A stretch of DNA of 51,769 nucleotides, the filler included, from Porpidia crustulata (lineage: Eukaryota): the NCBI GenBank assembly GCA_964255105.1. It is 2 parts of 2 records of this genome, joined end to end, with 100 filler letters (N's around TTAATTAATTAA, not from the genome) between each part and the next. Parts side by side here need not be neighbours in the genome. Positions count along the whole stretch, not along the records: positions 1 to 25,860 come from CAXUWE010000043.1; 1 more part is not named here. One strand, written 5' to 3'. The position numbers were made by a program, and so were the translations under genes. This document shows, piece by piece, positions 3,801 to 46,293 of the stretch. The notes below the pieces were generated by a model. That model was given only the letters and a program-made list of their open reading frames with translations. It was not told the origin of the DNA and made no database searches. Positions within the stretch are counted from its first letter, which is position 1, and every line of letters starts with the position of its first letter.

Positions 3801-4074
3801 AATTCGCGGTGCCCTATCTAATACATCACACCTGCGGATCTTTGGGAAGAGTAGACCTAGGACCGAGATCACTCACAATACAGGCCGTAGCACCGTGGGA
3901 ACGACGTCCGAGGGCTACGGGGCAAGATGCAATATGAGGGTGGATGTTTGAACATGGCACGGGGTGTTCTTGCACTGAAATTTGCTCCCAATTGAGAACA
4001 TCTATTCCGTTTGTGTTTCGACAATTTGCACCGGCGTGCGGCGGATCATGAGCTAATGGAAATCACAAGTTCAT

Positions 4075-6367
4075 ATGATCTTGCCGGAGAGGTTCGACTT
4101 ACCTGCCATGGCCCCCACCGACCCGAATCGGAATAATGACCCTTTCGACGATGCTCAAAACCAGGCTCTTTACTCCCGCTCAGTAACAGCTCAGGAGCTG
4201 ATTGTTCGAGATATTCAAGAAGAAGACAAGAAGAATCACGGCAGTCACCAAACCCCTATGACCGCCACGGACACGGGAGGTACGAGCATGCGAGTTGCGA
4301 AGATTCACCCGTCAGCGTTACGGAGCCGATCAATGTCTGGATCGAATCAACGCTCAAGCCTGATGAATGCCGACTCAAGCCTGATGAATGCCGGCTCAAG
4401 CCTGATGAATGCCGACTCAAGCCTGATAAGTGCTGCACCATGGCCCATTGTAGGCTTGCCTCTGCAAGAGCCAGAGGGCGTGGCAGCAGAGAACGATGCA
4501 CGAAAGGAGGAAGAAAACCTTCTCAGGGACAATGGGTTACTACCACCAAAGCATGCCGAGAAACTTAGCTCACGCCCTAACACTTTGGAATCGAGGGAAA
4601 GAGGAACCAATCTGTCCTCTGGATCGGCCACAGATGCTACATCAGCAGATGAGAACAACGAGACATCGTCATTGAGCCACACAGATTCCATGCGCACCGA
4701 AACAAGCCCGCTCCTGCCTCGCAAGCAACAGCGCAACGAAGATCTTGCTGCAGAAATTGACTATAAATGGGACGAAGCAGTCGCAGCTGGAAAGATTCAA
4801 ACCAGTTGGCGGAGGGAGGCAAAAGTATTAGCACATCGATCACTGCCTCTGATCATAACTTCCTTCTTACAGTGCTCCCTCACTGTGGCAGGCGTCTTCA
4901 CGGTCGGCCATCTAGGCAAGGTTGAGCTTGGGGCGGTCAGCTTAGGCAGCATGACAGCAAGCATAACTGGCTACGCTACGTACCAAGGGCTCGTCACCTC
5001 TCTCGATACGCTCTGCGCACAAGCTTATGGCTCCGGAAGGAAAAAGCTTGTTGGGTTGCAAATGCAGAGGACGGTGCTGTTCCTCTGGTGCGTGACCATC
5101 CCTATCGGAGCGCTATGGCTTAGCGGTACAGCCATACTTGAGGCTATCCTGCCTGAAAGCGAGAAAGAAGTCGCACGGCTTGCGGGTCTGTACCTAAAGA
5201 TCTTGCTGTACGGTGCTCCTAGTTTGGCGGCGTTCGAGGCTGGCAAGCGGTTCATGCAGGCACAGGGTCTCTTCACTGCGAATCTCTATATTCTACTTTT
5301 CTGCGCGCCATTGAATGCCTTCATGAGCTGGCTTTTCGTCTGGGTAAGCCAATTTCTGAGGCCTGCAATCTCTTCAACCTAGACCTCGCAAGAGGTAGTG
5401 GTTTTAGGCTGCGAATAGCGCCCACTCATCGTCTAATCATTTCGCTAACCATACGATACAGCAATTCAAATGGGGCTTCGTGGGCGCACCCATCGCAATA
5501 GTACTCACCGATAACATCCTCCTGATATGCCTAATCCTCTACGTCCGCTTCATCAGGGGTAGCGAATGCTGGGGCGGTTTTGACAAACGTGCATTTGAGA
5601 ACTGGGGTCCAATAATCTGGCTCGCGATTCCAGGCCTTGTAATGGTGCTCGCGGAGTACCTAGCTTTCGAGATCCTTACCTTTGCCGCAAGCTGGATGTC
5701 TACCTCTCATTTAGCGGCACAGGCTGTGCTAGCTACTATTATTCCGCTGATGTATCAGATTCCAATGCCGGTATCTATCGCAGCGAGTACGCGTATCGCG
5801 AACCTTGTTGGTGCAGGATTGCCGGGGCCAGCGAGAACCGCAGCGAAGGTAGTGCTAGTGGTGGCGTGCTTTTTTGGCGCCGCGAATACCATACTGCTTA
5901 TTACACTGAAGGACTATCTTCCCAGGCTGTTTACACCAGATGACGACGTAAGGAGATTGGTCTCCAACGTCCTTCCAATCTGTGCAGCATTTCAGTTATA
6001 TGATGCGCTTGCTGTGTGTTGCAATGGGATCCTAAGGGGGATTGGAAGGCAGCGGTTTGGAGGATGTGTTTGTCTGTTGGCATATTATGCGGTAAATGAG
6101 CCGCATTGAGATTGGAAATAAGACCAGCTAATCTCGGAACAGATTGCGATACCCATCTCGTTCGGCACTGCATTCGGATTACATTGGCAATTGTATGGAC
6201 TATGGGCCGGGCCGGCAGTGGCGTTGTTTTTGTGAGTGATACACGCGTTTCAAGGCGAGTTTGAACTGATATGTCAAAGAGTGGCGTCTATAGAAGGTGT
6301 CTACATCTACCACACGAGCTGGGAACGAGTCGTTGAGGAAGCTACGAAGCGGAACACCATGGGATAG
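4075..6367 (+). CDS. MATE-family efflux transporter (fungal ERC1-like), spliced
   Basis: ORFs 4075-5382 and 5480-6109 join through introns. Motifs: WDEAVAAGKIQTSWRREAK, GHLGKVELGAVSL, SLDTLCAQAYGSG, LAEYLAFEILT, ASTRIANLVGA, NGILRGIGRQ. The last exon ends ...KRNTMG* at 6367. Confidence 0.93.
4353..4433 (+). repeat. 21-bp coding minisatellite (about 4 copies, SSLMNAD/G) in the MATE N-terminus
   Basis: CTCAAGCCTGATGAATGCCG(A/G) is repeated and translates to SSLMNADSSLMNAGSSLMNADSSLIS. Confidence 0.92.
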
Positions 6368-11007: not shown

Positions 11008-11269
11008 CGTTGTCATCACGGTTCCAGCAGGCAAGCTTCAGCGACACCACCTAGTGACTTCAACTAGGACGAAGAAAGGATGCGGCATATTTCGCCAAAA
11101 GCCGAGCACGAGATACCTCTGTGCTTGATGACGGTTAACGCAGCTTTTCTCCTTTCTCGGCTTTCCACGATTCTACGTTTCTCGTTCAAGAGTAAGAGCG
11201 GGCAGCAAGTATGATGCAATCTATAGAAAGATGACGCATTGACTCCAGGTCTAGGACAGTCCATGCATT

Positions 11270-12966
11270 TTAAACATGTAACTCCAAGGTCTTGATAGTG
11301 TCTAAGTGATCATGATATGGTCCCAACGCGGTATCCACTTCACCTCCGAGTTGCGTGAATTTCTCGACCTGCTGGGCAGCCCGTCCTGTGAATGTGTTTG
11401 GGTCTAGAAGAACGTCTAAATTGCCATGTATTGGTTCGAAGAAGTCGCACTGTCTGATTCGATCGATTAAATCATTATCCCTACCGCGCTCCTTCACTAG
11501 CGCGGCAGCTTCATTCGACAGAACACCTAGGAAATCAGTTCTAGGAAACCCAGGTTGCACGGTGGATATACTGACGAATTTCCTCGTGCGCATCCTGTCG
11601 ACTTAAACCCTTGTGTACGCATTCCATGATTATGTTCTCTGTGGCCATCTGTTGATATTTAGCCAGGGAAAGCCGACCTGGTCGAGGGTTGCTTACGAAT
11701 GGCAATTCAGCTTCGATCCTCCGCTTTATGACCTCTTCATAGACGACGAGGCCAGCAGTAATGTTCAACAGCAGGATTAGGCAAGCGTCTGCACATAGAA
11801 ACGACTCGGGAATGGTAATGCGCCGTATTGCGCTGTCATCCAAGCTCATCTCAAGCCATTGCGCTGAATAGGTGTCGAGCGCCTCTTTGGGTTTGTTTCG
11901 TAGGTATCGTCCGAGTGAACAAAGACGCTCCGCGCGCATCGGGTTGCGTTTATAGGCCTGCCTCGAAGTTGGCATGATCCCGCAAGATGGAAGTTAAGAC
12001 ATACCATAGCACTGCTACCAATCTGGTCCAGCTCAAATGGCTCTTCCAGTTCCTTGAACACTGCTAGATGGCGGATATCTCCACCTACTCTCTCACACGT
12101 CGCACCGAAGGAGCCAAGTGCGTTTAGAATGTCAACGTCAACTTTGCGAGAATAAGTCTGACTGGTTATGGTGAAGACGGATTTGAATCCAGCCTTTTGA
12201 GTAATTAGCTCATCCAGTTGCTCTACCTTTTCATGATCATTATTAAATATCTGCAGAAACGAGGCTTGCGTCCCCGTTGTGCCTTTTGCGCCGCGAAAGC
12301 GAAGCTCATCCCGCGCTCTTTCCAGATTTCGAAGGTCCATGAGCAGATCTTGTATCCACAGACAAGCTCTCTTTCCAACCGTCGTCGGTTGGGCGGGTTG
12401 TCCATGGGTGTATCCTAAGCATGCTAAACCCTTATGATTCTTGGCGAAAGCAGAAAGCTGAGCTACAACCCTCGCGAGATTAGGAAGTAATAGATCAAGG
12501 CCTTTTTTCATGGCAATCAAATCACTATTGTCCGTACAGTAGGGAGAAGTTGCGCCCCAATGGATAATGCCCGCTGCGGCCGGTGCTACTTGGCCAAAGA
12601 CGTGCACATGGGCCATCACATCGTGCCGCCGCCTTTTTTCTTCTGCTGCGGCCGCATCAAAGTCTTCGTCTGTGATTCTTACGTGCGCTTTCATTTGAGC
12701 AATGGCCTCGTTGGTGATGGGGAGACCAAGTTCTAGTCTCAGTTAATGCCGAGTCCAGACACTGGAAATGAATCTGTACGTTTTTGGGCTTCTGCCAGCC
12801 ATAACCAGAGCTGTCGCCAGTTTGAGTAGCGGGAGCGCGGTGAGAAAAGAATTTTCATCTGATCGCCTGGAAACTCCGCCTTCAGTCATGGCCTGTTTGG
12901 TGTGAACAGGGAAAGCTTACCAGCATATCTCGAGTTGAACGGTGTTTGATACACATCGTTTGCCAT
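11270..12966 (-). CDS. ade13: Adenylosuccinate lyase (eukaryotic type), spliced
   Basis: [15 protein letters not shown]..., [25 protein letters not shown] (catalytic His), [38 protein letters not shown] (catalytic Ser loop), [18 protein letters not shown]. Confidence 0.96.
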
Positions 12967-13210
12967 TTCATGCAAACTCGAAGACGAAAAAGCAGCTAGA
13001 GCTGTAGCCTCTCTGCTGGCACCAGACACAAAACAGCGTTACCCAGCTAATTAATGGGCTTCGTACAAACTTGGCTTGAAAGTCTGTTGAATAGATCGCG
13101 CAGGAAAGTGAAAATCGACCGATACCTTTTGGAAAGAAAGGAGGTGCCTAGATAAGTTGTCCCACTGGTTGAAGCTCGGCTCGGCGCCTTTCCACCCGAA
13201 TACTACTGTT

Positions 13211-13232
13211 AATGCAATGCAATGCAATGCAA
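13211..13232. repeat. (AATGC)x4 microsatellite in the divergent lyase/BVMO intergenic region
   Basis: AATGCAATGCAATGCAATGCAA. Confidence 0.85.
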
Positions 13233-13825
13233 CAGGTCAAAACACGACCTGCAGCCGAGTACGGCCGGTGACGAAAGTGTCTCCGGGCAATCCCTCACCT
13301 TCTCCGCGCAAAAGTTGCGGCTACTCCTAAGCTACAGTAACTTAGCGTCGGCTATACACTGGGCAAGTCTGCTGAAGCACGCCTGCTACCAGATCTGGTA
13401 GAGGAGATCTCACAGCACCGTCTCCACCCCCACTCCGTAACATGGGACGTCATATGCGCAACTCTCAGATCCTCCAAAATTCCCGGAAGAGAGCGAGCGC
13501 AATAATGGTTTTCCTCCAACACCTCGCCGAGAGCTGCCGGGATGGTCAAGATATGCAGGCCTTATTTAGCAACTGCAAGATCCCAATGGTCACTTCTTTT
13601 GAGTTAACGCCTGCACCTGTAGATCCTGTCGTCGTTCGTCCGAGCGGGGATACGTACACCTTGTTCGGGGATATGTACTGTACACCTTGTTGAGCACTCC
13701 TCGAAACGGTACCTGTAATAACCTCTTGGCTGCTCATCAACATCGAGTACCCGTCTATCAAAGCCTACCTAAGCTTCGACCTACCCTCCATCGCTCACTC
13801 AGCTGTCCGAAACCCAGTCGCAGTT

Positions 13826-15769
13826 ATGTCACACAAACCCCCGTTCGAACATCATGCCGAGCAGAGAGACACGGTTAATCCGTACGCGGACAGTTTAGAC
13901 ATCGATGTGCTCATTGTCGGGGCCGGCTTTGGGGGCCTGTTTCTCCTTCACGAGATGCGTAAGGAAGGCTATCAGGTAGTGGTGTACGAAGCGGCAGGGG
14001 GCATAGGTGGCACATGGCGGTGGAATGTTCATCCTGGCTCGCGTGTGGATTCAGAAATCCCCGCCTACGAGCTATCGATTCCAGAGGTGTGGAAGAACTG
14101 GACGTGGAGCACGAATTTCCCAAATTATCAGGAGCTTCAAAGATATTTTGACCATGTTGATCAAGTCTTAAATCTGAGCAAAGACTGTGCCTTTAATACT
14201 ACAGTTGTCAGTGCGGAATTCAGTGAAGAAACAGTCAAATGGACTATCAAGGCTCGGGATGGACGTATCTGCAAATGCCGATTTTTCATCGTAGCTACTG
14301 GCTTTACTACTAAGCGCTTTGTTCCCGAATTCAAGGGCATTGACAACTTTCAAGGGAAGATGTATCATTCATCTGACTGGCCTACGGAGGACGTCGATGT
14401 TTGTGGGAAACGCTGTGCCGTTATCGGTACTGGTCCCTCAGGCGTCCAGATCGTGCAGGAATGGAGCCCATTTGTTGGTGAATTGAAGGTATTCCAGCGT
14501 TAGTATAACCTTGCCATCCTTTTCATACCGCCGTGATGGCTGACGGCTGCTGAAGGTACTCCGAATTTTGCTTTACCAATGGGGAGGAAGGAGCTTACTC
14601 CCGACGAGCAGAATAAGCTAAAACCACTCTATCCTAAACTATTCGCCCATCGTGAGCTGTCCTTCAGCGGTTTTACTGTGGATATGGAAGAGAAGAATAC
14701 CTTTGACGTCAGTCCACAGGAGCGAGAAGCCTTTTATGAAAGATTGTGGACTGAGGGCAGCTTTGCCTTTTGGCTTAGTAACTTCAAAGACTACCTACTT
14801 GATTACAAAGCCAACAGGGAAGCATACAGCTTCTGGGCTAGAAAGCAACGTGCTAAAATCCATGATGTGCGGAAGCGCGACATTCTTTGCCCCCTTGACC
14901 CTCCACCTCATTATCTTTTTGGTATAAAGCGGCCTTGTCTCGAGCAGAGATATTATGAGCAATTCAACAGGCCTAATATTGAAATCATCGACGTCTCTGC
15001 GTCATGTGCGGGTGAGAATGATATCGCGGAGTTCACTGAGACAGGCATTAGGATGACCGATGGGACCCACTATGACTTCGACGTTATCGCTCTTGCGACT
15101 GGCTTTGACATTACGACTGGTGCTATAACGGAGCTAGGCTTGCGGTCAATACGCGGGACTTGCTTGAAGGATGAGTGGAAGACGACCGCCTATAGCTATC
15201 TTGGCACTACTATATCTGGGTATCCCAACCTCTTCTACCTTTACGGACCACAGGGGCCGATGGTGCTGTCTAATGGAGCTGCAACTGTTGAGGTACAAGG
15301 TCGCTGGATTAGGGATGTAATCAAGAAGATCAACGCCCAAGGGCTCAAGTATATCGATCCAACGCAGGAGGCGACTATGGAGTGGAAGAAACGGATTAAT
15401 GAGTTGAGTCACGGGACTCTCTTTTCAACGGCACCAAGGTCAACATATATGGGCGGCGGTATTCCCGGCAAGGCCCCTCAGCAGGTGAACTATACCGGTG
15501 GGTTAGGAAAGTACAAGGGGGAGATTAGAGCGGCTTTGCCGGGATGGAAGGGGTTCAGGGTCGTGGCAGGCGCTGCACCTGGCACGGCGGCATGCGCAGC
15601 CCAAAGCACACCGACGGAAGTACCACAGAATATCAGAGCAGAAACTTCAACTGCGGGATGCTTACCAGAGAAGAACATTAAGGCCCCCTTGACCAACGGC
15701 TTTCATAAGTGGCAAACCGCTCCTTCGATGATGCAACCTCCGTCTCCTCTATATGAGAGCTACCACTAA
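13826..15769 (+). CDS. Type I Baeyer-Villiger monooxygenase (FAD/NADPH), 2 exons
   Basis: GAGFGG Rossmann motif, GGTWRWNVHPGSRVD, BVMO fingerprint FQGKMYHSSDWP, second Rossmann motif GTGPSG, FQR|TPN across an intron at about 14499-14555, KRP, ATGFD. Confidence 0.93.
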
Positions 15770-16103
15770 TTCCTGCCGTCTCCTACCGTGTAGCCTCCTC
15801 AACTCCTTTCCTGTCGGCATACCGCGCACGCCTGTCTAACTAAGAAACGGAACAAACCATGGTCCCTGTGGCCGTGCCCCTTCCACCGCACTGCTTCTCC
15901 CCCCATCTATCTCGTTCCCTGTCGCACTAAACCCAACCAGCATTCGGACAGCCAACTAACGTACCGGCGCGTACGACATTTGTGAGACTGGACCTGCCGG
16001 ACTATGGGCAATCAGATCTAGAAGGGCATATGTAAATAAACGGATTCTGGAACAATCTATATGCGTATAATCTCTCTACATTGTGAGGTACTGCACCATC
16101 TTC

Positions 16104-17699
16104 TCATCTAACAATCATAGCCTCCCTTTCTGGACCCGTGCCGATCCATTTGACCTTGACACCGACGAAGCCCTCTATAAACTGTATGTAATCCCGTGCC
16201 GCCTGAGGCAGTCGATTATATTCCGTGCAGCTTGCGGTCGTCTCCTCCCAGCCGGGGAATGTCCTGTATGTGACGCTAACCCTGTCCAATTTTTCCATAT
16301 CGGCTGGGAAATCTTCCAGTACCGCTCCGTCAAGTGTATACCCCACCGCGACCTGCAGCTCGTCAAATCCATCCAAGATATCCAGTTTCGTCAGATTCAA
16401 CGCCGTGTAATGGTTGATGGCGCAGGAGTAGCGCAGGACAACGAGGTCGAGCCATCCGCATCTGCGCCTGCGGCCCGTGGTCACGCCGAATTCGCCGCCG
16501 AGCCGCTGCAGCGTGTCGCCCACGTCGTCGAAAAGTTCGGTCGGGAAGGGTCCGGGGCCGATACGCGTCATGTAGGCCTTGACTACACCGATGATTTCTT
16601 TGATTCGGAAGGGGTTGATGGCGAGGCCGGTGAAGACGCCACCGAGGCCGGTGTTGGAGGATGTGACCATGGGGTAAGTACCTGTTTTAGCGGACAGAAG
16701 ACGTTAGCTTGTTGCGACTACGGTTGGACATTGACCGCCACTATCTCACCGTGGTCGATGTCGAGAAGCAGCGCGTTCGCGCCTTCGATCAAGATTCGTC
16801 CACCTTGGTCTTCCTCCTTTTGTATGAGTGGCACTTGGTTGACAATAAACGGGCCCAGCCGCGTCCGATACTGGTCAAAGCGCTGGATCTCCTCCTCGAT
16901 ATCATACTGCAGAAGGTCTCCATATCTCTTCTGCCAGCCGCTGGCCAGTGTCCGCAGCTTTGCATTCATCAAGTCTGCATCGTTGATATCGCCCACCCTC
17001 ACACCACTTCGAGCCGCTTTTGTGGAGTAGCAAGGCCCAATGCCCTTTTTCGTCGTCCCTATTTGCGCGGCGCCCAGCTCCTTCTCTTCCAGGTTGTCCA
17101 CGCGCTGGTGGAGATCGAAGACGACGTGCGCGCGATCGGAGACGAACAGTCGTCCTTTGGCGTCGACGCCAGCTTTCTCGAGTGCTTCGAGCTCGTCGAA
17201 GAATTCGCGGACGTTGATGACGCAGCCGCCGCCGACGAGATTGCGGGAAAAGGGCTCCAGGAGACCGGAAGGCAGCAGGTGGAATTGGTACGCCTTCTTG
17301 TTGCGGTCGGCGTCGCGCCGTACCACGGTGTGGCCCGCTATACTGTAGTCAGCATCAATCGACTGTGTACTGTGAGCTAGAGCGGACCATTGTTGCCGCC
17401 ACTGTGTCTCCAGATCAGCTCCTGGCTACATCACCAGCAATGACATGGATGCTACTCACGCAGAACGTGCACAGAGATTGAATTCGCCGGAACTGATCAG
17501 CACGTCTATCAATTTTCCCTTCCCTAACGCACGTATGAGCTCAGAAGGGCGTCTGCCGAGTCTCTTGGTCGTCTACCTTCGTCGCCCAACTGTGGGTAGT
17601 CGAGGGTTAGCTTTGACCAGTATCTTACAGCTCCGTGTGTGACTTCTGATGGTGGAATCTAAGCCGTACCTGTGTACCTAGAACTATAGTGCTGCCCAT
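16104..17699 (-). CDS. ade12: Adenylosuccinate synthetase, 6 exons including two micro-exons
   Basis: Exons 17699-17670, 17589-17577, 17523-17460, 17401-17388, 17337-~16750 and ~16681-16104 give [96 protein letters not shown]. Confidence 0.95.
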
Positions 17700-18350
17700 A
17701 TCCCAAGCGCTACCGCGCGTGTGGCGCGTTCTTCTGCGGGCCCGTCTCAGCTTTGTTCAGAACGACAAAGATTACCGTAAAATCTCAATAAGTGGCCACA
17801 GAGGGATGATGCACTTCATTACAGACAGTGCGGCCGATGTGGAATCCAATGGTCAATAAGAATAACAATGAAAAAGAGGCACTGGTCACATCTCCGCTGT
17901 CTGTGTGCTTGCGTTACTCTGCCCCGCTACCGAGTGTCTCCGTTGTGGGCGAAAGTTCCAGCTATAAATGCGTGCTAATGTAGGTACTTCACAGTAGATA
18001 TGCGACATGCGACATGCCTGCTCAGGTGTGCTTCCAAATGCATGAGTAACCTGCCTACAACGTCCGGACGAAGTATCTTCTAGCGCTATCCTCCCCCCAC
18101 ACGACATCCTTTCCGTGTATCCCGGATTGAAGCTTCAGGCTCTACTTTTGTATTTACCCCTCCCAGTCATATCTGCACCAATCGTGCACAGAGTGTAGGC
18201 GGCAGGAGGGAGCCGTGCAGCTTAAATGCCTAGGTACATGACTTGTCGGACTTCATCGGCTGAAATGGAGGTGGACGTGCAAAGACAGAAGCAGCTCTAC
18301 AATATATCCAACCGTGAGCATTCATCCTCTGTTATCCACGACGACTAAGA

Positions 18351-19467
18351 ATGGTTCCTAAGCATACGTCGTCGTCCTTGGCGACTCGAGCCCCGGCCGA
18401 GAAATCGAGTCCTCTACCGCTCTCTGTGACGCCATCACCCCAAGAGCTTTCAGATCAGCGCCTTTCATGGAGAAATCTCGAGCTGGCTATACGAGCACTT
18501 CACCGCGATGGACTTGTGGTCATTGAAGACGCAATTGACCATGCCAAACTTGACTTCCTTAACCAGAAAATGATCCAAGATGCGCTGGTCTTGCAGTCGG
18601 CTGGCGACGAAAGCCCTTATAACTTCAACAAAGGGTCAGTCTCTTCATTTGCACTTGCTGGCTTGCTATTGACAGGCCCTGACTAGAAATCTTCAGCAAG
18701 ATCCGCCAATGACGAGTCAATACTTCGAGCCGAGCATTTTCCTCAATCCGCTCGCCACACAAGTAACTTCTACCATCCTCGGGCCTCGACCCAGGCTATC
18801 CTTTGTCTCTGGTAACACAGCCCTACCACCAGTACCTGGAGTTCCTCCTCAGTCGCAACCGATCCATTCGGATTGCGATTTTGACCATCCCAACTGTCCG
18901 TTCGCGCTGGCTGTCAACGTACCTCTTATTGAGATGACTCCTGAGAACGGTAGCACTGAAGTATGGCTTGGCACTCACGTAGGGTCAGGCGTTTTGGCTC
19001 AGGAGGTAATGCCTGGAGACAGAGGCGGCACTCGAGTCAAGTCTAACTTGCTCGAAGAACGCGCCATGGAACGACCACCATCACAACCGACGATTAAGAA
19101 AGGGTCGATCATCATCCGCGACTTACGCTTGTGGCACGGTGGGAAACCAAACTGGACGAAAGACGCTAGGGTTCTGCTCGCGATGATTCACTGGGCTCCT
19201 TGGTATCGGTAAGCTGCACCCGCTTTCACTATTGTTCTAACATTACACTGAGAACCGCAATCAAGGAGCTCAATGCATGTGGAATTTGCAGAAAGCCTGC
19301 GGCCTATACTCGATGCACATAGGTCCGACTTGCAAATCCAAAGCACCTTTATGCCAGAGGAAGACATCTACAAACGTTATTTGAATCGTCCTTATGGTCA
19401 CGCCTATGACTTCGACCAAACTGATCGTTTGGAATTTTTTGATCAGCAGCAGGAGCAGACCATATGA
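18351..19467 (+). CDS. PhyH-family Fe(II)/2-oxoglutarate dioxygenase (kanamycin B dioxygenase KanJ-like), 3 exons
   Basis: LHRDGLVVIEDAI, PYNFNKG|NLQQDPP, QPIHSD (HxD), NVPLIEMTPENGSTEVWLGTH, RDLRLWHGG (distal His), R..LAMIHWAPWYR. Confidence 0.9.
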
Positions 19468-25860: not shown

Positions 25861-25960
25861 NNNNNNNNNNNNNNNNNNNNNNNNNNNNNNNNNNNNNNNN
25901 NNNNTTAATTAATTAANNNNNNNNNNNNNNNNNNNNNNNNNNNNNNNNNNNNNNNNNNNN
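25861..25960. other. Artificial assembly spacer/gap
   Basis: 44 N + TTAATTAATTAA (stops in all six frames, 25905-25916) + 44 N = 100 nt. Confidence 0.97.
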
Positions 25961-27782
25961 AACTAGGAGTCATCATTGAGTCTGTCAAAGCCATCGACCA
26001 CGACGAGGTGGAGAGTTTCAAGGCATCCATATGGCCAGTAATTGAGGAAGCCGGTCGTCAGATGGATGCTCATGCCAGGATCATGTCGCCAGCTGCCATC
26101 TTGATTGTTAATCCAGGCGCCCTTCCGAGATCAGACAAGGGAACTATCCTCCGAAATGTGGTGGCAAAGAAATTTGCCGAAGAGATAGCGGGCGTATATC
26201 GTAATCTCGAGGCCAGCGTGGACGCGCCTCCTCTTGACTTGTCCTCGCTCCGGTCAAGCATCAGGGCTCTAGTGCCAGAAAACGCCAATTGGCAAGCCCC
26301 TGGCAATGACTGGCTCGACGACGATGACTTCTTTGCGCGGGGCATGGACAGCCTCCAGGCAACTCAGCTGCGAAGGTTCCTGACAGCCTCGGTACGCGCG
26401 ACACACACTGCGTCCGGGTTCGAAGCGGACCATATCCTGTCCGTCGACAAGATCACCGACGACATTGTGTATCTACACCCATCTGTCAGCATGCTTGTTG
26501 AGGCACTGATACCAAAACGCCCGGCGGCGAACGGGATCGTACTTGAAACGGAACTCGTCGAACAGCTAGTTGAGAAGTACTCGGGTAGACGTGACCACGG
26601 ACAACAACAAAAGAAAGCCGTCGTCGTGCTTACAGGCGCTACTGGAAGTCTGGGATCATTTTTCCTTGGGGAGCTTCTCATGGATGATTCCGTGGGTTGC
26701 ATCATCTGTCTGAACAGACCTGGGAAAGAAAATTCAATCGAAGCTCTGAGATCACGGGATATCTCGGTCAGTGATGAGATGTGGGCCAAAGTTGAGATAC
26801 GCCAGACGAGTACAGCGGCCCGATGCCTCGGGTTGGAAGAGTCCGAGTACGAGCGCCTAGCGACTGAAGTGACTCACATGGTACACATTGCGTGGCCGAT
26901 GAATTTCAAGATGGGCCTGCAGTCTTTCGATGCTTCGTTTAGAAGTCTGCAAAACCTGATCCAGCTGGCGCACAAGGCACACTTTTACCATCATCGGACA
27001 AAACCAAGGGTGCTGTTCATATCTTCCATCTCCACTGTTGGCAACTATCCATCCGTTCAGGGGGGGGCTCTGGTCCCTGAAGTCATTGTCAAGGACCCGA
27101 CCTGGACGCTCAAATTCGGCTATGCCAAAGCCAAGCTCGTATGCGAGAAAATGATCGAACGCGCGACTAATGATTACCCTGAGATTGAGGCCGGACTGGT
27201 CAGAGTTGGGCAGATCGCAGGCGCCAGCAGTGGCTATTGGAACGCCAATGAACACTTCGTCGCCGTCTGCGCCTCGTCCCAGAAGATGGGCAAGTTTCCC
27301 GATCTACGTGGGGTAAGTCCAGCGCCAAATTCTCATCCGTCTACATACCATTCGTCCCACTGATATCCGTGAAACAGACATTGTCCTGGCTACCAGTTGA
27401 CTCAGCTGCCAAAGCTATCGCTGAGATTCTCTTTGATCATCTCCCGCTCCAACTGGTCTACCATCTGGAAAACCCTGTCCGACAGAGCTGGAAAGAGGTA
27501 GTAATGCTCATGTCCAAGGAGCTCCAGATACCTAGCTCGTCCATCATCCCACTGGAACATTGGCTGGACCTCGTTGCGTCTGCACCAGGACCAGGCAACC
27601 CCGCCGCGAGCCTCATACAATTTCTTCGAAACGATTTTCTTAAAATGTCGTGCGGGTCTGTAGTTCTGGATACATCCATCTCGCGCAATGTGAGTTTAAC
27701 TATGGCCAACATGGGACCTGTGGGAGAGAATGCCATCAGGGCCTACATCTCTTACTGGAGGAGGATGCAGCTATTTAAATAA
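25961..27782 (+). CDS. NRPS-like adenylate-forming (carboxylic acid) reductase A-T-R, 5' part lost in the gap
   Basis: A-domain end LPRSDKGTILR, T domain DFFARGMDSL, R domain VVVLTGATGSLG, HIAWPMNF, FISSIS, GYAKAK (YxxxK), RVGQIAG. After an intron: LSWLPVD..YHLENP. Confidence 0.92.
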
Positions 27783-30654: not shown

Positions 30655-32565
30655 ATGACCCGCCTCACATTTCTTCAAGCCTTGCCGGCGTTCCTAGCCA
30701 CCTTTCAGACCGTGTCGAGCACACCGTTGACCTTTGGAGGCCTTCATCCGCGGAATGAGCCCCAATCTAACCACACGGTCTGGCCCACAGACGTGGCTGG
30801 TCTGGCCCATGACCAAACTTGGCCCAACTTCGCGAACAAGACGTCGCGGTGGTCCTCGTACCTACCCCCGAGTTTTAATGAAGTATTCCTTCCGAAAACT
30901 GAGAAAGATCTTTCCCTTGGCGTGAGTACATTGTCCTTTGTGTCCAATACTTCCATATCAGGGGAGAGATGTAGACTGAAAGTACGCGGTGTGTAGCTTC
31001 AATACATGTCAAGCAATCACTTGCCCTGGCTGGCTAAGTCGGGAGGCCACGGATATTCTCCAACCCTCCACGCGATTCAAAATGCCGTCTTGATCAACAT
31101 GGAGAACTTCAACTACGTCAGGGTGGAAGGCGATGGCAGCGCTGTCGTAGGTACCGGCACGCTTTTCGGCGATCTCATAGACAGTGTAGCCGCTGCGGGT
31201 AGAGAGCTGAGTAAGTCATTCCAGCCGCGAATATCTTGTGCTCATTCTAACCTTCACACAGCCGTGGGTTCATGTCCCTGCGTGGTCAGTGATAATTCCG
31301 TTACTATTCTATTCTTTTAGGCTGTCCTTGAAGCTGCGAGACGTTCTCTAATCCTGGAACTTGTCTTAAATCTCAAGAGATATCCATTTATGGCAATCGC
31401 TAACACGAATTTGTCACAGGGTTCAACTGGCGCCATGCTCGGTGGTGGTCTCGGGCGTCTTCAGGGCCTCCATGGCCTGACGAGCGACGCTCTTCGTAAA
31501 GTCCGCGTGGCCTTGTGGAATGGCACCATTGTTGAAGCTTCCAATGAAGTCAACCAAGACTTGTTCTGGGGCATAAGGGGCTCAGGCCAGAACTACGGCA
31601 TCGTTATAGAATCCACATACGAGACTTGGCCCGCGACCAATGGAGGCATGCACTACAACGCAGACATGATCTTTACCAAAGACTCCGTGGAACGGATCGT
31701 GGAAATCATTAATAACCTGACGACTCCCGCATTAGATTCTAAATTGGGCTTCGTTGTTTTTTTCGCATCAGATGCCGCAACGTCCAAGGTACGTGGAGTG
31801 TCCCTGGCCGCGTGTCATTCCATCTCCATGTTTGTTGCTACATTTCATCGCTGACCTATCAAGCTTACTGTCGTTGTCAATATCGTATATGCTGGTTCAA
31901 AGGAGGAGGGTCGGAAGTATACCAAACTATTCTCGTCTTTCAGCCTGAGTCTCGCGGAGAGCATGCTTCCGTGGGCAGAACTACCCACGAAATCAGTTCT
32001 TGGTCTCATCCCTGCGTCCTGCGCCGAGGGACGACGATATAACCTCTACAGCGTGATCACCAGGACTTTGGACCCGAAAAGTTTCGTCAAGTTCAGCAAC
32101 GATTTCGAGAAGTTTTTGCAAGACTACCCTCCGGCCAACGGATCCGCCATGATGCTCGAGACGTTCCCCGTCCAGGGCGTCGAGGCGCTTCCAGACGACT
32201 ATTCCGCCTTTCCCCATCGCAAGAATTTTCACAACCACATCGAATCCATTGGGTCGTACACGGATGACTCTGTGGCAGACGCTGTGGACAACTTCTTCCG
32301 TGGGTGGCGCGACAGATTCGCTGAACCCGCCATTTCCGGCTACGGCGAGCTCCACGTCTACCAGAACTACGCTCACGATGACGAGCCCTTGTCGGCCCTT
32401 TACGGATACCAGGAGTGGCGCCACGAGCGTCTGACACATCTGAAGAACACCTATGATCCTCACGGTTTCTTCAATGGGTACCACCCTGTGCCTTCCGATG
32501 TCGCAAAGTGGGGAGAACGACAAGACACCAAGGACAACAAGACGAATGGAGGGAAATATGCATAG
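30655..32565 (+). CDS. BBE-like/VAO-fold FAD-linked oxidoreductase with signal peptide, spliced
   Basis: MTRLTFLQALPAFLATFQTVSS signal-like N-terminus, AKSGGHG (His for covalent FAD), VGSCPCV|G (second FAD-linking Cys), LGGGLGRLQGLHGLTSD, DLFWGIRGSGQNYGIV, YQNYAH..YG..RL..LKNTYDPHGFF. Confidence 0.92.
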
Positions 32566-33094
32566 ACAGAAGAACTGGCGGAGGTGTATCTTACAATGAA
32601 ATTTTATTTCTCGTACGGGTTCTAGTTCTTGGTCTCGACTGCCGCGGTTTCTCGGGGACGTTAAGGAGGAGGTGTAGGGGTAAAATTACCTCAATCATGC
32701 CGAATCAGTACCCTTTCCGTTCCTTTTGTCCTTCAAAGCCATTAGCTGTAGTCGTCTCTTTGTTACCACCAATTGAATTCTCATGGCTGATGCTTTGTTG
32801 GTGCTACGTTTACCCCCTTCACCATACTTGTGTCAGAACATGGAGTAGTGGCATGAATACCTATACCTAGCTGAGTAATACCAGCATGGTATAGAGTGTA
32901 TACCTATATATACTGGCCACGTGTATCCATAGTAATTTTTCAATTTTGTGGTTACGAGTAAGCGAGATAACCCCGCGAGGGGTCACCTGACAGCCAGGCA
33001 TCTGAACCTTTCAGCCTCGTGGTGTCGAAATTTTCAGCCTCCTCGTAAGACTATCGCACTCACGACGCGGCAAGAAAAGCCCAATATAACGGGC

Positions 33095-34697
33095 ATGACG
33101 CTGCAATTCATCGATCAGGGTGCGATCGGGATAGGTCCGTCGGAGTCCGACCGGCGCATCATTCGTTCCCATGTTATGAGAGGCAAGAATGCGGGCAGAC
33201 CACGCCCGTCGACGAGAAAACAAACAACTATTGTTCATGGTAAACGGGTTCGGACCGCCCCCGGCATACTAGGATCAGGATACTCGAAACTGGGACGACA
33301 GCTGCTCTGGAACGATCTGTGTCTCACATCGTTCCCGCAACAGCTTGACTCGGAATCTACCAAACTCATGCATCGATGTACATTCAGCGTTCTACTTTCA
33401 ATCCCTGCACTCTTTCCTTCGTCTTCGCTTACATACTCCTCTCAGGGTTCTTTGACATTAGCGATGCGCTGTTTCCGCCCCAATTCTGCTCGAAATTCGA
33501 CATCGTCAAGTCGATTTGGGTTAATTATGTCCTGGTAGATGAAGCATGTGAGTAACGTATCTAAATGCCACGTTCATTCACCAACGTTAATACCTTACCC
33601 CCCAGACTTCCACAGCACGTTGGCTATATCAGCGTCTTACGTCGACTTCTTCGAGCGTAAGCCTGGAATATCCTCCAAAACTCTACATCACATTTCACAG
33701 GCGTATGCGTTAGTCAACCTAAAGCTGTCGGGCCCTGAATCCATTTCAGACAGCGCTATAGCTGCTGTGGTTACCCTCGCCATCTACCAACAGATACATC
33801 ATCTGCACTCTACTGGCTTGATACACCTCAACGGGCTCTATCGAATGATCCAGCTACGGGGAGGAATCGCCAGACTGATGAAAGAGAACCGTGCATTGGC
33901 GCTGAAGCCATTGAGGTACGTGTATATGCTTGCATTTGCGGTTCTTTCTTTTTGTCTCTTTCCTTTTTGAAGCGAAAAGTCTTACGATTACCAGGCTTGA
34001 CGTCGAGTTGGCGTTGCAAACTGGGTTACCTACTGTGTTTCGCAGCGACGCAGTAATACTTACGAACGGCGTCTCAGGCGATTCTTGCGTTATCAAGGAG
34101 CAGCTCCTAAGCACTACCTCCAGGCTTTCACGTATCATGATCAGTATCGTCAGCTTCGCCAGCCTCCTCAACGGCAAGGAGAGGGAGGGCCGAACGAAGC
34201 TCGACCCGCTGAGTTTCACGGAAACGCTAGTATCACTCCTCTATCGTCTGATAGAGGTCGCTCCTCTGGGGCAACCACATCCCATGTTGGGAGGCCTCTA
34301 CGACGAGATGGCACATCTAGCAATGCTAGCATTCATGACCACCCTGCTCCCGGAATACGGCCGTGACGACTCCAGTCACCTTCTTTCTGATCGCCTGGAG
34401 AGCGCCATTCAGGATCTCCATGTCACGTCCGCAGACACCCAGGACAGCGGGTTCTCACTACTTTTGTGGACTCTGTTTATTGGCGGCGCATCAGTTTTGA
34501 AAGGCAAGGACCATCGGTGTTTAATCTTGGAGACTTGTGAACGACTGGAGCTATATGATTGGCCAGCTGTCCGTCGTCAGCTGTGTGGGTTTCCTTGGAT
34601 ACACACGCTGCACGACGTTCCTGGTCGATCCCTGTGGGAGAGTGCCCAGCATTGGAGCACTGAGGATTCACGAGAGCTCTTACAATTAGAATTCTGA
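33095..34697 (+). CDS. Fungal-specific transcription-factor-like protein with no visible Zn2Cys6 domain
   Basis: N-terminus FIDQG..DRRIIRSHVMRGKNAGR, followed by D.A.FHSTLA, AYALVNLKLS..SDSAIAAV, IHLNGLYRMIQLRGG, LLWTLFIGG, the pattern of fungal TF middle domains. It has 3 introns. Confidence 0.7.
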
Positions 34698-34826: not shown

Positions 34827-36294
34827 TCAGACTGCAGCATATCGCGCTTTGTGGTATAACTCGGGAGAAATATACGACTTCACGTCTGGTTCTCCCTTCT
34901 CGGTACATTGGTAGCTGATGTAAGCATGCATTCCCTTCCCATTCTCCAGCCCTCTGTGCTCAGCAAGCTTCTCCAGCATGCCGAGGTAGGCATCGGCATA
35001 GGCATCGCGACCATGTGCGCGCAGCCAAGCCATCAGATTCCGAGCGATGGTCAGATCGTCAGATCCATATTTACGCGTGGTCAAGTAGAACTTGACCTCG
35101 GGCTTGCCACTCATGGGAGCAATGTCGAAGAAGTAGACGAATCCCTCGCATAGTGCGTCAAAGTCAGGCCATTCGTTGCCGCCAGTCGACTCGACGGAAA
35201 TCTCGGCATCCTCGGGGTAGTCCTCGGGAAGCCCCAAGACGGCAACAATCAGGGAGCGCAGGTCCTGCAGACTGGATTCGGAAACATCTCGGAGTCCGCC
35301 CATCGTCATGACTTCTCGGACCGACTGGAAGCTGGTGTGGCGCGATGTGAAGTACATCTTGAGCCGCGACTTGGATGGTTCCACGTCGTCCATGCCCATA
35401 ACGTTGGGTTTCATGAGCTGCCCCTCCGGGCTGGTTGCAAGGAAATTCATCAGAGCATCTCGGCCAGGGTGACTTCTGCCGGGGTTTAGCTTCACGATGG
35501 CGTCGTCCCATTCCTGCAACGTCGCGGGGTCTCCTCCTTGGAACAGCTTCCTTGGCAAGAAGTACGACTTGAGTCCGAAGCTGGCATTCTTGTTATACTC
35601 GACAGCGTGCATGAGAGTCGTGGCCGGTGGGTCACCCTGTTCCAGCCCCTTGGCGTAAACGGACCTATCCGGGTCGTACAGCTCGGCCAGGAAGTGACGA
35701 TACCAACTGAAATCGGTGCCTGGGAGCGCTGTCGACACCTTCTCCATGTAGTCCAGCGTGGGATCATGGTTCAATGGGTCAGCGGCCATACCTGAGGCGT
35801 CGCTTATTGCCTCCCAGGAGTAGCGGATGTCGGGTTCGCCACTCGTAGTGTTCCATCTCCACGAGTACTCCAAGGGCGAACCATCGTAGGCTATAAGCGA
35901 CTTGAACACAGGACGGCCATCAGGCTCGGGTGCTGGGCCCAATCGAGGCACCTGAACATCCCAGTGAACCCCATTAGAAAACTTTTTGAGCATTATATCT
36001 TTCATTATGGCGGGGTTGCTTGCTTACGATCCAGTGATAATGGAAAAGCAGCGTCTCATACTGCCTCTCCGTGGAATAGCCAGCCGCGTCAATCATGACC
36101 GCCAGGTGGTACCCAGTGAGTCGCCACCAAAACTCGGCATCTTTGTCTTTCGTGGGCGGGAGCCAGTTATTTACCAGTGAATGCCACACCTTGAGTGGTG
36201 GNNNNNNNNNNNNNNNNNNNNNNNNNNNNNNNNNNNNNNNNNNNNNNNNNNNNNNTGTCACTTGGCCCTGCAACTTTGTGATAAGAGCTGGCAT
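34827..36294 (-). CDS. DMATS-type (ABBA) aromatic prenyltransferase; small N gap in exon 1
   Basis: WHSLVNNWLP..FWWRLTGYHLA..AAGYS..Q..L.FHYHWI|VPRLGPAP, DGSPLEYSWRWN, IRYSWE, LKSYF, SRLKMYF, YFFDI..PEVKFY, YIS..KSYISP. Confidence 0.94.
36202..36255. other. Scaffold gap (54 N) inside DMATS exon 1
   Basis: Run of N with no linker; the length preserves the reading frame. Confidence 0.97.
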
Positions 36295-36431
36295 GGTTAT
36301 TTACGATGGAGGGATGGTGGCTCAGCAGACCACTGACTGATATCAGGGCTTCAGAGACAGCAGTACGATATATATTACTTTTGTGCTAATGTGACATGAT
36401 TGTAGCAGTCCTGCTTGGATGCGAGTCGACG

Positions 36432-39124: not shown

Positions 39125-42100
39125 TCACACAATTTCTCTCCCAATCCTCCGAAGCAGAAACTTGTATCCCTCCGTAACATAACCCCAGCGACTTCCGTCA
39201 GGATCCCGGTACATATCAAACAGATGAGGCTGACCCGGCGCGAGCGTAAGCCCAGACTCGACACCCGCGGCCCTCATCGCTTCCACCGTCCGCTGGGCCT
39301 GCTGCCACGGAATCAGATCGTCACTGGTGCCAAACACGACATGCGTTGGCGACTTGTAGTTGCCCCGAACTATCTGCGCGTAGGGGCTAGCCCGCACGAT
39401 GTCCTCTCTCGGCGGCTGTTCCAGATGGTTGAAAGGAGCCGCAGCTTGTGGTGCCACGCTCGATGCCGATGGGAGGCCCCTGAAAAGGACAGGCAGCGTT
39501 TGTCCGTGCCAGTTCATGTGGAGTACCACCCGACTACGAGGATCTTTCGGCGCTTTCCAGCCTGCTGCTGCGATCATCTTGGAGGGCACACTGTACGAGG
39601 TGATGGGCGTGGGGAAAACCCCATCAATGACGTTGTATGTTTCGTTTGCAAACCTGCCGGAGTGGTCTGGGATGTTGGGCTTCCGCCAGAAGTCGTCTTC
39701 GTAGTCGGTTGGGCAGTAAAAGACCAAGATGGCGTCGGGAGGCGGGATCCCACGTGATATAGAGGTCCAAGCTAAGGACATGGCCAGCGTGCCCCCAGTC
39801 GACCAGCCGATAACCACAGCCCGGGTGGGATCAAGCAGTCTATTGGTATTGGTCTGTGTCAGGTTCAATAATGGCAGCGTATTCCGTAGCCAGGCATATG
39901 CGTTGCTGACGTCAACGAGCGGTCCGTCTAGAATTGTGGTCTCTGGGCAGAGTCTGTAATCCACGGCCACAGGCAGCACGCCGTTATCGAGGAGAAGTTG
40001 GAGTTGGCGCGGACGCAAATCCTGACGTGATAGCATCACATGGCCCCCTCCGTGGACCATCAAGCCTGCACCAGAGCAGCGTCAGCTCCAGCGTGTCTAT
40101 ATGTAGGTAATCAGACTTGTACCGTACCAGCGACCCAAGTCCCGAGAGCAGAGGCCTGGGACCGCGAAGGATAATGGACGTCTGCTCGTAGCGGAAGTTT
40201 CTTGTCAGTGTGGGCGAAAACAACCGTCTCAACACCACTGGCGTTCTCCTGGGGTGTGCTGCGATACGAGGATGGATCCCCGACTGGCTGTTTGAAACCG
40301 GTGATGACCCTGACGACTTCAGACTCGCGCGTGTACCCGCCCGTCCATGAAACGTGTTGAAATCCAATTTGTCGCATCGACTTTTCCCAGAACTCTGGGG
40401 TCGCGAGCACATAAGGGCGCCCGTCATTGTACAGCCACCAGCCGTCGAGAAGACCGAAGACCATATCCAACCAAAAATTCCTGGTTGTCAACTCAACCAG
40501 CGACACGAACCCGTGGGGCTGCAAGAGCTTGCTGATATTGCCCAGAGAGTTGGGAAGGTTGGTGGTGGCGTGGATGCAATTGGTTGCGAGTACAATGTCG
40601 AATTGCCCTTGATATTGGGCTGGAGGCTCCTTTTCGATGTCGATGGTGGCATATCTGACACAGTCTAAATTGGCGAATTTGCGCTTGGCCGCTGACACCA
40701 GTGCAGTCGAGATGTCAGTGAAAGTGTACTCAATGGGTATCCCCCGCTGCACCAAACGATCCACGACCCAACGTGTCGTAGCGCCTGTGCCTGCTCCCAA
40801 TTCAACGATGTGGAACTTGCCGTCGGGTCCAGGCACTGATGTGCTCAATGCCTTCTCGAGAAATGATGTGAGAAGCTGCGACATGATGACAAACATGGGA
40901 GCCGTGGTATACACGTCTTCGAGAATGTTCCGGTTCGACTTGTTCCCGAATAGGACGGAGAGGGGATCCATCTTGCCACTCAAGAACTTAGACATGTCTG
41001 CTCCGCAGAGACTCAAGAGCATGTGCTCCCTGGAATGCTGGGGAAACTGCGTTACGATGTCTCTGAAAAGGATGCTGGAGTTGGTCGTCTCGACAGGCAC
41101 GTCCGAGCGAATATATTCTCTACCGTCGTAGTCGACCAACTTGCCATGACGGAGGATTTCGTGGAGAACATCAAGCATGCGGTCATATTTTGGTACCACA
41201 CTCATTCTGGGGATCTGTTCACCAGGTCCTAATGAACTTAGGTTGGTGCCAAGGTCCGAGAAAGCCTCTACAGCGTAGGCTAGAACCAATTGCGCCTGCT
41301 TGTCGTATACCCTACCATAGAAGTCACTAAACTCGTACTCGTCTGCAAGCTTGTCGAAATCACCCTTGATACCCTCAAATTCCCGAGCTGCACTAGCCAG
41401 AATATCAATTGTCGAAGAAGAAGAAGACGTCTTCGTCGTCCGGACCTCGTCAACGCCACTATCAGGAACGGTGACAGGTGTGATGAGGCCAGACGATTGT
41501 ATCCGCGTAGAAGTAGCCGTGCTCGAATTCGTCGTGCTCGTATGTCCAAAGGGCGCAACCGCACTGACGAGTATGTCGGCAAGTTGGCCGAAGTTGCCAT
41601 CACCCGTGAGAACAGATAGGTCGACCGAGACGCCAAACATCTTCTCCACGTCGCTCATGAGTTCCATGCAGAGAAGAGAGTCCAGGCCGCGATCTACGAG
41701 GTTCGTCGAGCGCTCAAAGTCGCTCGCTGGGCAATCGAGATGGCTGCCTAACAGGCTTGCCAATCGCGACACCAGATCCTGATGCTGATCGTACTCTTTA
41801 ATCTTGGAACTTCCAGCCACTAATGTAATTTGTTCGATTCTATGGCCGAGGTTGATCTGTTGGTTCGTAGTTAGGTGGCTGGGTAGTGTATGTGGACGTA
41901 GAAGTGGAAGTATGACTAGAATTCCCTGAGGCCGAAGGATGTCCAATTCTTTCTGAGGTCCCTGTCGACTCTCATGGGTATCTAAATATCTACAGAGAGA
42001 TGAAACAGTCTGCAAATCCTGGAGACGATCCTGCGGTATCGATATGTGGAAGACTTCATGAACCTCTGATACAATCTCTGTGATCATCAGAGAGTCGATG

Positions 42101-45100: not shown

Positions 45101-46293
45101 ATAGACAACTGCCCTGGTATAAGGGTGATCTTGGGATGCACCGACACATAATTAGCCTGTTTGGGGATGGTGCGGTTCTGCATCATTAGAATGGTTTTGA
45201 TGAGGCCGGCCACTCCAGAGGCTCCTTCAGTGTGTCCGATGTTTCCCTTCACGGAGGCCAAATGAAGAGGCTCTCGTCTCAACTTGCTGCCAAACACCTC
45301 CTTGATAGCCTCGAATTCGAGAGGATCACCGACGGGCGTGCCCGTGCCGTGAGCTTCGACGTAAGTGACGTCCTCGGCAGCGATATCAGCCGTACTCAAG
45401 AGCTTGCGATACAGCGCCGTCTGTGATGGGCTGTAGGGAACGGTGATGGGCACCTTGTTGCTGCTCTGTCTGACTGAGGTGGCGAGAATCGTGCCTAGGA
45501 CGGTATCGCCATCTGCGACAGCTTGCGAAAGTCGTTTCAAGACCACTAGACCAACGCCTTCTCCACGACAGTAGCCATCAGCACTGGCATCGAACGATTT
45601 ACTCGCACCGGTGGGACTGAGGAAAGAGGCAGCCGATAGGTTTTGGTAGAAGAATGGACTCGTGAAAACTGAGACACCACCGGCAATGGCGCTCTTGCAG
45701 TCGCCATGGAGGACTGCCTTACAGGCAGCATCGATGGCTACTGCTGACGATGAACAGGCCGTGTCTAGAGCGATCGAGGGCCCAGATAACCCAAAGAAGT
45801 GGCTGACTCTGCCTAGAACAAAGGCTCTCAAAGTCCCTAGTGCCGAGAAAGCGTTTGACGGATGACTGGCCACGTTGTCATTGTAGTCAGACGCGCACAC
45901 TCCGATGAAACAGCCAACGTCAAGGTCCGGTTCATGAGGACCGAAGAAGCCAGAAGACTCCAACGCTTGATAGGAAACCTCCAGCAAAAGTCGTTGTTGG
46001 GGGTCCATCGACGCTGCCTCGCGGCTGGACTTCTTGAAGAAGCGGTGGTCAAAGCTTGCAATATCGTCGAGGAAGTTGCCAAAATATTTCATCTTTTCCG
46101 TATTGCGTTGGTGGTCATGGGTCGGAAAGCGCCTGCTGGGAGGCTCGCTCAGCATTGACTGTCCCGCGTCTAAGATGCGCCAGAAATCTTCGACTGAGTC
46201 GGCTCCAGGGAATTTGCATCCCATGCCGACGACAGCGATGGCGTTGGGCGGCGTATCCTCCGGAAGGACGCCATTTGTCCCGATTCCAGACAT
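39125..46293 (-). CDS. Non-reducing PKS KS-AT-PT-ACP-ACP-CMeT-esterase (methylorsellinate-synthase type), with no SAT domain and an in-frame TAG at 44856-44854 (possible pseudogene)
   Basis: KS DTACSSS/HGTGT/GNIGH, AT GHSFG and HGFHS, PT GHSV..PLCPAPLY, ACPs LGIDSL and GLDSL, MT ELGAGTG and TNCIHAT. After a GTACGG..CAG intron at about 40127-40066 come esterase motifs HGGG and GWSTGG. Confidence 0.93.

Follow-up and report, generated by a model that had tools for sequence, protein, structure and literature searches.

A possible self-resistance pair of adenylosuccinate lyase and adenylosuccinate synthetase beside tailoring genes in Porpidia crustulata

What is the function of an adenylosuccinate lyase that has lost an arginine close to universal in its family, and that is encoded next to an adenylosuccinate synthetase with changes of its own? 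This question is raised by a locus of Porpidia crustulata (GenBank assembly GCA_964255105.1), which was analysed in a window of 51,769 nucleotides, filler included, consisting of two parts of this genome that are joined end to end and need not be neighbours in it (positions 1 to 25,860 are from CAXUWE010000043.1); all positions and distances given here are along this window. The lyase (ADSL) gene lies at 11270-12966 on the minus strand and the synthetase (AdSS) gene lies 3.1 kb from its start, and with the latter the question no longer concerns a single unusual enzyme but a module of two enzymes for the conversion of inosine monophosphate (IMP) to adenosine monophosphate (AMP). The best reading, to which we give a probability of only about 40%, is that the two genes are co-inherited self-resistance copies of both enzymes of this AMP branch, insensitive to an inhibitor that the fungus itself would produce.

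The lyase gene is intact, as judged from its spliced model, Pfam and homologues. It codes for 483 amino acids in six exons (12966-12921, 12866-12780, 12732-12005, 11957-11697, 11648-11576, and 11526-11270, the last one including the stop), which are separated by five GT..AG introns of 47-54 nt, and splicing yields an uninterrupted frame. The largest exon matched Lyase_1 (PF00206) in Pfam with 1.1e-17, and the last exon, which was the only piece scanned for ADSL_C (PF10397), reached 1.6e-6 and 28.8 bits, under the cut-off of 32.7; full-length homologues carry both domains. Exon 3 matched fungal Ade13 proteins with E values down to 2.6e-135 and human ADSL structures with E values of about 1e-96. 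By homology, the protein can thus be regarded as an adenylosuccinate lyase, yet it fails one near-universal feature of the family, which is the arginine of the motif that otherwise reads E-R-(S/T). That this motif reads E-M-S and that GATSP stands in place of GATSC had been noticed in a first-pass annotation of this DNA, and the spliced model bears out both, with the two codons inside the annotated range of 11820-12560: the ATG codon of Met324 is at 11849-11847 (minus strand, inside [10 protein letters not shown]) and replaces the arginine that is R329 in the human enzyme, and the CCC codon of Pro108 is at 12544-12542 (minus strand, inside GATSPY) and replaces the cysteine that is human C113.

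Both residues are exceptional among fungi. When the 120 best fungal homologues were aligned with the spliced lyase and the closest one, P0001, was set aside, the arginine column held Arg in 118 of the remaining 119 sequences and a gap in one, and the cysteine column held Cys in all 119, which means that neither Met nor Pro occurred at the respective position. Met is thus not common among these Ade13 homologues, a point on which the first-pass annotation had made its interpretation depend. Met and Pro occur together only in P0001, out of the 120; this protein shares 91% identity over 426 residues and comes from a metagenome-assembled genome (MAG) of a lichen fungus labelled Heterodermia aff. 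obscurata. In the nearest groups, 29 additional cluster members are canonical wherever the sites are covered. For the wider family, P0001 was searched against 1.84 billion representatives, and in the 150 diverse members obtained, which are 34-79% identical, the arginine column contained 134 R, 5 gaps and 11 other residues, none of them Met, and the cysteine column contained 59 C, 17 A, 14 Q, 10 S, 7 M and others, but no Pro. The motif arginine is therefore close to universal, whereas the cysteine is conserved at the level of fungi and animals only. Among the 11 sequences with other residues at the arginine column, five look like broken gene models, and the six with a recognisable motif (P0343, P0367, P0387, P0419, P0407 and P0304, 36-43% identical to P0001) have H, G, Y or Q, and never Met. 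The JGI metagenome collection yielded no further loci of the Met type, as nothing in it matched a degenerate DNA pattern that encodes Q-W-x-E-M-(S/T)-L-D-D-S-A.

Two of these distant representatives, P0387 and P0419, have Gly at the motif-arginine column and Arg at the column of Pro108, an exchange from which one may suspect that the two positions adjoin each other in the fold.

A single-base change of AGG to ATG, by sequencing error or by decay, had been proposed in the first-pass annotation as the alternative to a functional change, and ATG is indeed only one base away from AGG. This explanation was rejected and must be considered extremely improbable, because the close orthologue P0001 has the same Met and the same Pro, the assembly was reproduced, neither the frame nor any of the five introns is disrupted, selection can be seen, and the change from a Cys codon to Pro requires at least two base changes. 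The assembly was compared with Logan contigs over 1851 bases that cover the lyase gene. The assembly of run X1 agrees with the window at all 1851 bases, and as this is probably the same sample, the agreement checks the assembly only. Contigs of three other coded organisms (X2, X3 and X4) span the whole gene with 94, 121 and 103 differences; these relatives are 5-6% diverged, with X2 at about 5% (94 of 1851 bases). Codon effects were assessed on 40 of the 143 difference rows, which are all from X2, cover 11242-12146, and were taken as the first X2 rows by position: 22 of these 40 differences are synonymous, 12 are non-synonymous and 6 are non-coding, and none touches the Met codon. Random change would give about one synonymous for every three non-synonymous differences, and the gene is, by these 40 differences, under purifying selection.

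The next question is where the two residues sit. In the human ADSL chains, which have 487 residues, Met324 corresponds to index 332, which would be R329 if a tag of three residues precedes the native sequence, and it is located five residues before the phosphate-binding Ser, just as R301 precedes Ser306 in the numbering of the Bacillus subtilis and Staphylococcus aureus enzymes. The alignment with the human chain and the spacing agree with the equivalence to human R329 and B. subtilis R301 that had been given in the first-pass annotation. Pro108 aligns with human C113, and we take this position to be Thr95 of the S. aureus enzyme, assuming that an offset of 18 residues stays constant. According to PMC2917274, the hydroxyl group of S. 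aureus Thr95 contacts N1 of the adenine. As for the arginine, PMC6301967 places human Arg329 such that it can stabilise a negative charge on the carbonyl O6 of succinylaminoimidazole carboxamide ribotide (SAICAR), the other substrate of the enzyme, whereas adenylosuccinate has no carbonyl there, and this placement supports the earlier assignment of the arginine to the purine base. As C6 bears O6 in SAICAR and N1 in adenylosuccinate, the two lost side chains would face the same position of the substrate. In the Porpidia lyase, two polar side chains beside adenine N1 and SAICAR O6 thus appear to be replaced by Met and Pro, which we regard as a selected remodelling, and the suggestion of the first-pass annotation that the nucleobase pocket has been remodelled fits with this, since both changed positions map beside the base.

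The remainder of the active site is conserved. The lyase retains R13/Y14, H81, H86, T106/S107, H154, S284/S285, K290, N292, E297, S329 and R332/R333, and of these the catalytic acid His154 (human H159) as well as S284, S285, K290, N292 and E297 are found in all or nearly all of the 119 fungal homologues. The catalytic serine loop S-S-A-M-x-Y-K-R-N-P is intact, and the contacts to the 5'-phosphate are kept in the N-terminal R13-Y14 and in S329, R332 and R333 of D-D-S...R-R, the roles of these residues being described in PMC2917274 and PMC13539675. The alignment thereby agrees with the earlier statement that the catalytic His, the Ser loop and the phosphate-binding residues are retained. As all residues that bind the phosphate and the ribose are unchanged, the enzyme should still bind the 5'-phosphate of a ribonucleotide. 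For the same reason, a nitrosuccinate lyase of the CreD type, to which there is a match with 5e-9, was rejected as an identity of this protein.

The synthetase gene (16104-17699, minus strand) was recognised by a Pfam scan of its open reading frames (ORFs), by its gene model and by homologues; it is intact as well and codes for 428 amino acids in six exons, two of which are micro-exons. All catalytic motifs of the synthetase are kept. Its best match is an orthologue, P0121, that is 84% identical over the exon, and all other sequences are at most 63% identical. The changes of interest are in the otherwise invariant active-site strand K-A-Y-M-T-R-I-G (16560-16571, minus strand), which reads K-A-Y-x-T-R-V-G in relatives: all 119 other fungal AdSS have Val at the position of Ile277, the position of Met274 is T in 94, Q in 24 and S in one of them, and P0121 shares both Met274 and Ile277. 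In the alignment, the E. coli chain has index 273 opposite Ile277, and Val273 of E. coli is said to shape also the aspartate site (Gorrell and colleagues reportedly described this in 2002). In Helicobacter pylori AdSS, the backbone oxygen of Val264 binds the 2'- and 3'-hydroxyl groups of IMP (PMC11571797), and this Val264 is likely the equivalent of Ile277 if the offset of 9 seen in the Arg294/Arg303 pair applies. When the exon was compared with JGI metagenomes, there were 182 pattern matches, and none of these was confirmed by tblastn.

The micro-exons of the synthetase (17577-17589, 13 nt, and 17388-17401, 14 nt) restore the P-loop G-D-E-G-K-G-K and the motif G-G-N-N-A-G-H-T, and the N-terminal part of the model was proposed on the basis of these restored motifs. 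The database model of P0121 (404 amino acids) lacks this N-terminal part, and gene callers probably miss the micro-exons. At the fourth Arg of T-T-G-R-x-R-R, which the Porpidia synthetase shares with all 119 other AdSS, P0121 has a Thr, and this could be a real change or a model error.

Both enzymes have evolved on long branches. The stems that lead to the Porpidia enzymes together with their respective orthologues have lengths of 0.16-0.20 for the lyase and 0.49 for the synthetase, with inner branches being typically 0.02-0.15. The lyase groups with the canonical sequences P0003 and P0244 (81-83% identical), and then with sequences of Lichina, Bachmanniomyces and Trypetheliales. The relatives that cluster membership put a name to are Lichina, Bachmanniomyces, Lasallia, Umbilicaria and Cohaesibacter. 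An approximately unbiased (AU) test with 25 rows and the LG+G4 model rejected a grouping with the Ade13 of Teloschistales, which we take to be the sister order of the taxon by which P0001 is labelled: the log-likelihood (lnL) difference was 124 with a p value of 4e-49, or 111 with a p value of 1e-9 when P0244 was included, values that are weakened by the choice of the groups after the first tree. An initial AU test had forced Letharia into the constrained group and was not a clean test. The rejection fits a non-vertical or an extra copy of the lyase gene, which is what the indirect evidence favours. The RNA runs X19 and X20 contain 0.05-0.07 of the sampled words.

With respect to copy number, one cluster at 90% identity (P0021) contains two ADSL entries from Lasallia pustulata and two from Umbilicaria vellea, in each species on separate contigs; these are canonical at both sites and could be duplicates or haplotigs.

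The immediate neighbours of the two genes were determined by Pfam scans of stop-to-stop ORFs across the window, from which short or intron-rich genes could escape. Divergent from the lyase gene, there is a flavin monooxygenase gene on the plus strand (13826-15769; FMO-like, 1e-15), whose ORF translation contains GGTW..N..PG...D and F.G...H...WP, which are presumably the two motifs of type I Baeyer-Villiger monooxygenases. Divergent from the synthetase gene across 651 bp, there is a gene for a PhyH-family Fe/2-oxoglutarate dioxygenase on the plus strand (18351-19212). The four genes thus form two divergent pairs in a block of about 8 kb (11270-19212). The lyase and monooxygenase genes, with starts read from the ORF translations, have a common 5' region of 859 bp (12967-13825) and may share a promoter.

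This region contains a short (GCAAT)n microsatellite near 13213-13235.

The preferred self-resistance reading combines these observations as follows. The lyase would be a functional and selected paralogue-type copy of Ade13 with Met and Pro beside N1/O6, and the synthetase would have been inherited alongside, and would have been altered in turn in the strand that adjoins the sites for the IMP ribose and aspartate. Together, the two enzymes would constitute a dedicated IMP-to-AMP module that is co-arranged and possibly co-regulated with tailoring genes of secondary metabolism, and that keeps AMP synthesis going during production of a compound by which the ordinary enzymes are blocked. This compound might be an adenylosuccinate-like or a Cys-reactive molecule from the adjoining cluster, and the loss of Arg and Cys would remove contacts to the inhibitor; an adenylosuccinate mimic would hit both enzymes, and with a Cys-reactive compound it would be understandable that a cysteine invariant in the 119 other fungal homologues was lost. 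Resistant target copies usually remain active and have a ligand contact changed, and ligand-contact substitutions with a conserved catalytic machinery are found in both the lyase and the synthetase. The reading is preferred because the genes are interleaved with tailoring genes, because catalytic machinery is kept and ligand contacts are changed, and because there is a precedent for AdSS in fungal clusters: a study on the mining of resistance genes mentions an AdSS homologue inside Hypoxylon clusters (PMC12616698). No self-resistance role of an ADSL was found in full-text searches of the literature, in which only this mention of AdSS came up.

Several points weigh against a self-resistance function. 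Two resistance genes for consecutive steps are unusual. The core of the polyketide cluster that could make the compound is 26 kb away, and between it and the pair there are genes for a YMR027W-like phosphatase and a NUDT5/Ysa1-like Nudix protein. The arginine that is equivalent to Met324 in the B. subtilis enzyme is reportedly critical for catalysis (Segall and Colman 2004), and given such a role the Met enzyme may be too poor to rescue growth. The median identity of the lyase to the other fungal homologues is 68%, compared to 71% among those others, and the overall divergence of both enzymes is only slightly above the fungal background. Canonical Ade13 and Ade12 copies would be expected elsewhere in the genome, but a search seeded with a Teloschistes Ade13 gave no second ADSL from the MAG of P0001 among the 120 matches listed, a result that is uninformative on absence, and the nearest canonical relatives, P0003 and P0244, could represent the ordinary gene of this lineage or something else.

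If the enzymes are not resistant copies, they might be tailoring enzymes that together aminate a 6-oxo purine-like ribonucleotide analogue by addition of aspartate and elimination of fumarate, as in the bacterial toyocamycin and formycin pathways. The Met/Pro pocket would then fit a base that is altered at the N1/C2/C6 edge, and it is in line with such a role that both changed lyase residues face the base while the phosphate and ribose contacts are kept, so that the substrate would still be a ribonucleotide. Adjacent AdSS and ADSL genes are described as a signature of toyocamycin-type clusters in bioRxiv 10.64898/2026.04.15.718813, and the last dephosphorylation in tubercidin formation uses a Nudix enzyme, according to PMC6112128; here, a Nudix gene and a DUF89 phosphatase gene lie within 7 kb, on the downstream side. 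However, the DUF89 phosphatase closely matches yeast YMR027W and the Nudix protein closely matches human NUDT5 (NUDT5/Ysa1-like), which weakens their candidacy as nucleoside-pathway genes, and both are probably ordinary genes. Moreover, genes for the formation of a base scaffold (GTP cyclohydrolase, phosphoribosyltransferase, GMP reductase, radical SAM) are not among the Pfam matches of the window ORFs, the immediate partners, a Baeyer-Villiger-type monooxygenase and a PhyH-family dioxygenase, are typical of polyketide or terpenoid tailoring, and the lyase is just about 19% diverged from canonical Ade13. A tailoring function is thus conceivable, if rather unlikely, and it is likewise unlikely that, as the fungal equivalent, with introns, of the "alternative purine" amination modules of bacteria and phages, the pair turns such an altered 6-oxo purine ribonucleotide into its 6-amino form and so gives rise to an undescribed base-modified adenine nucleotide or nucleoside.

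The pair could also have sub-functionalised after duplication, as a module for the IMP-to-AMP conversion or the purine nucleotide cycle that is unrelated to any natural product and in which the arginine was lost as it mainly serves SAICAR cleavage. Vertebrates have two AdSS isozymes (the matches include isozyme 1 of mouse and isozyme 2 of human), and pairing with the enzyme that makes adenylosuccinate would suit such a module. Arg329 has indeed been proposed to act on the O6 charge of SAICAR and not on adenylosuccinate (PMC6301967), and its loss would hit the de novo step selectively. On the other hand, the Leishmania enzyme does not cleave SAICAR and has nevertheless retained Arg361, the equivalent residue, for the binding of its substrate (PMC13539675), which argues that the arginine does not become dispensable merely because an enzyme handles adenylosuccinate only. 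As 134 of the 150 diverse members of the family have the arginine, and as the Cys-to-Pro change and the changes in the synthetase are left unexplained, sub-functionalisation is to be doubted. Still less probable is that the two genes are simply the sole Ade13 and Ade12 of the fungus, with a quirk of the lineage and with neighbours that are there by chance. The lack of a second copy among the matches listed, an overall divergence within the range of other fungal enzymes, and flanking Mpv17, DUF89 and Nudix genes that look like housekeeping genes are compatible with this. It would require, though, that near-invariant residues changed in both enzymes at once (Arg in 118 of 119, Cys in 119 of 119, and the AdSS Val in 119 of 119), and it does not agree with the accelerated stems of both lineages or with the AU test, which rejects the expected vertical placement. 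Chance adjacency of two AMP-branch genes is unlikely, and Met at a residue that is said to be critical would burden de novo purine synthesis.

In comparison with known systems, the lyase has the same fold family, catalytic His, Ser loop, Lys/Asn/Glu and phosphate-binding Arg/Tyr/Ser/Arg as fungal Ade13 and human ADSL (EC 4.3.2.2; PDB 2J91, 4FFX, 5NX8, 5VKW), but it differs from these in having Met for R329 and Pro for C113, and in being linked to an AdSS gene instead of standing alone. Like fungal self-resistance copies, of which the IMP dehydrogenase copy in the mycophenolic acid cluster is an example, the Porpidia genes represent purine-synthesis enzymes beside tailoring genes, with catalytic residues kept and a ligand contact changed; unlike in those cases, two consecutive enzymes are affected, the inhibitor is postulated, and the second, canonical copy is presumed. 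With the ToyF/ToyG-type pairs of bacterial 7-deazapurine and C-nucleoside clusters, they have in common that a lyase and a synthetase are adjacent and would convert an IMP-like to an AMP-like nucleotide, but the Porpidia pair is eukaryotic and intron-bearing, it is very similar in sequence to housekeeping Ade13, and no base-scaffold genes were found nearby. Full-text searches of the literature, supplements aside, revealed neither an ADSL with this change of the arginine nor an ADSL/AdSS pair in a fungal cluster. To our knowledge, there are few natural inhibitors of the AdSS/ADSL pair, and we know of none for ADSL. If the two enzymes are resistance copies, they would point to an undescribed natural inhibitor of the AMP branch (AdSS and/or ADSL) and to the residues that such a compound uses, whereas a tailoring role would make them the first module for an aspartate-dependent amination of purine analogues in a fungus. 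In either case, the natural double change of R to M and C to P probes the catalytic role of a near-universal arginine, including the need for it in SAICAR cleavage only that has been proposed from human ADSL structures.

The other genes of the window are of mixed character. Upstream of the block there are a Sulfotransfer_4 gene (1262-2192) and a MATE transporter gene (4057-6109), together with a weak MFS-like ORF and an Mpv17/PMP22 gene. On the other side, at 25909-27782, a gene resembling non-ribosomal peptide synthetases (NRPS-like reductase) contains the domains AMP-binding_C_3 and NAD_binding_4, and as no N-terminal AMP-binding domain was detected by Pfam in the ORFs upstream of it, it could be truncated, intron-rich or diverged. 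A secondary-metabolite cluster follows at 30997-50998 and thus starts about 12 kb past the block, with housekeeping-like genes in between. It consists of genes for an FAD/BBE oxidase (30997-32565), a fungal transcription factor (about 32936-34697), a DMATS prenyltransferase (34827-36300), a cytochrome P450 (37163-38750), a non-reducing polyketide synthase (39125-46386) and an MFS transporter (49477-50998). The polyketide synthase has the architecture KS-AT-PT-ACP-ACP-CMeT with an esterase-type C-terminal ORF, which we take to resemble synthases of methylated orsellinate or depsides.

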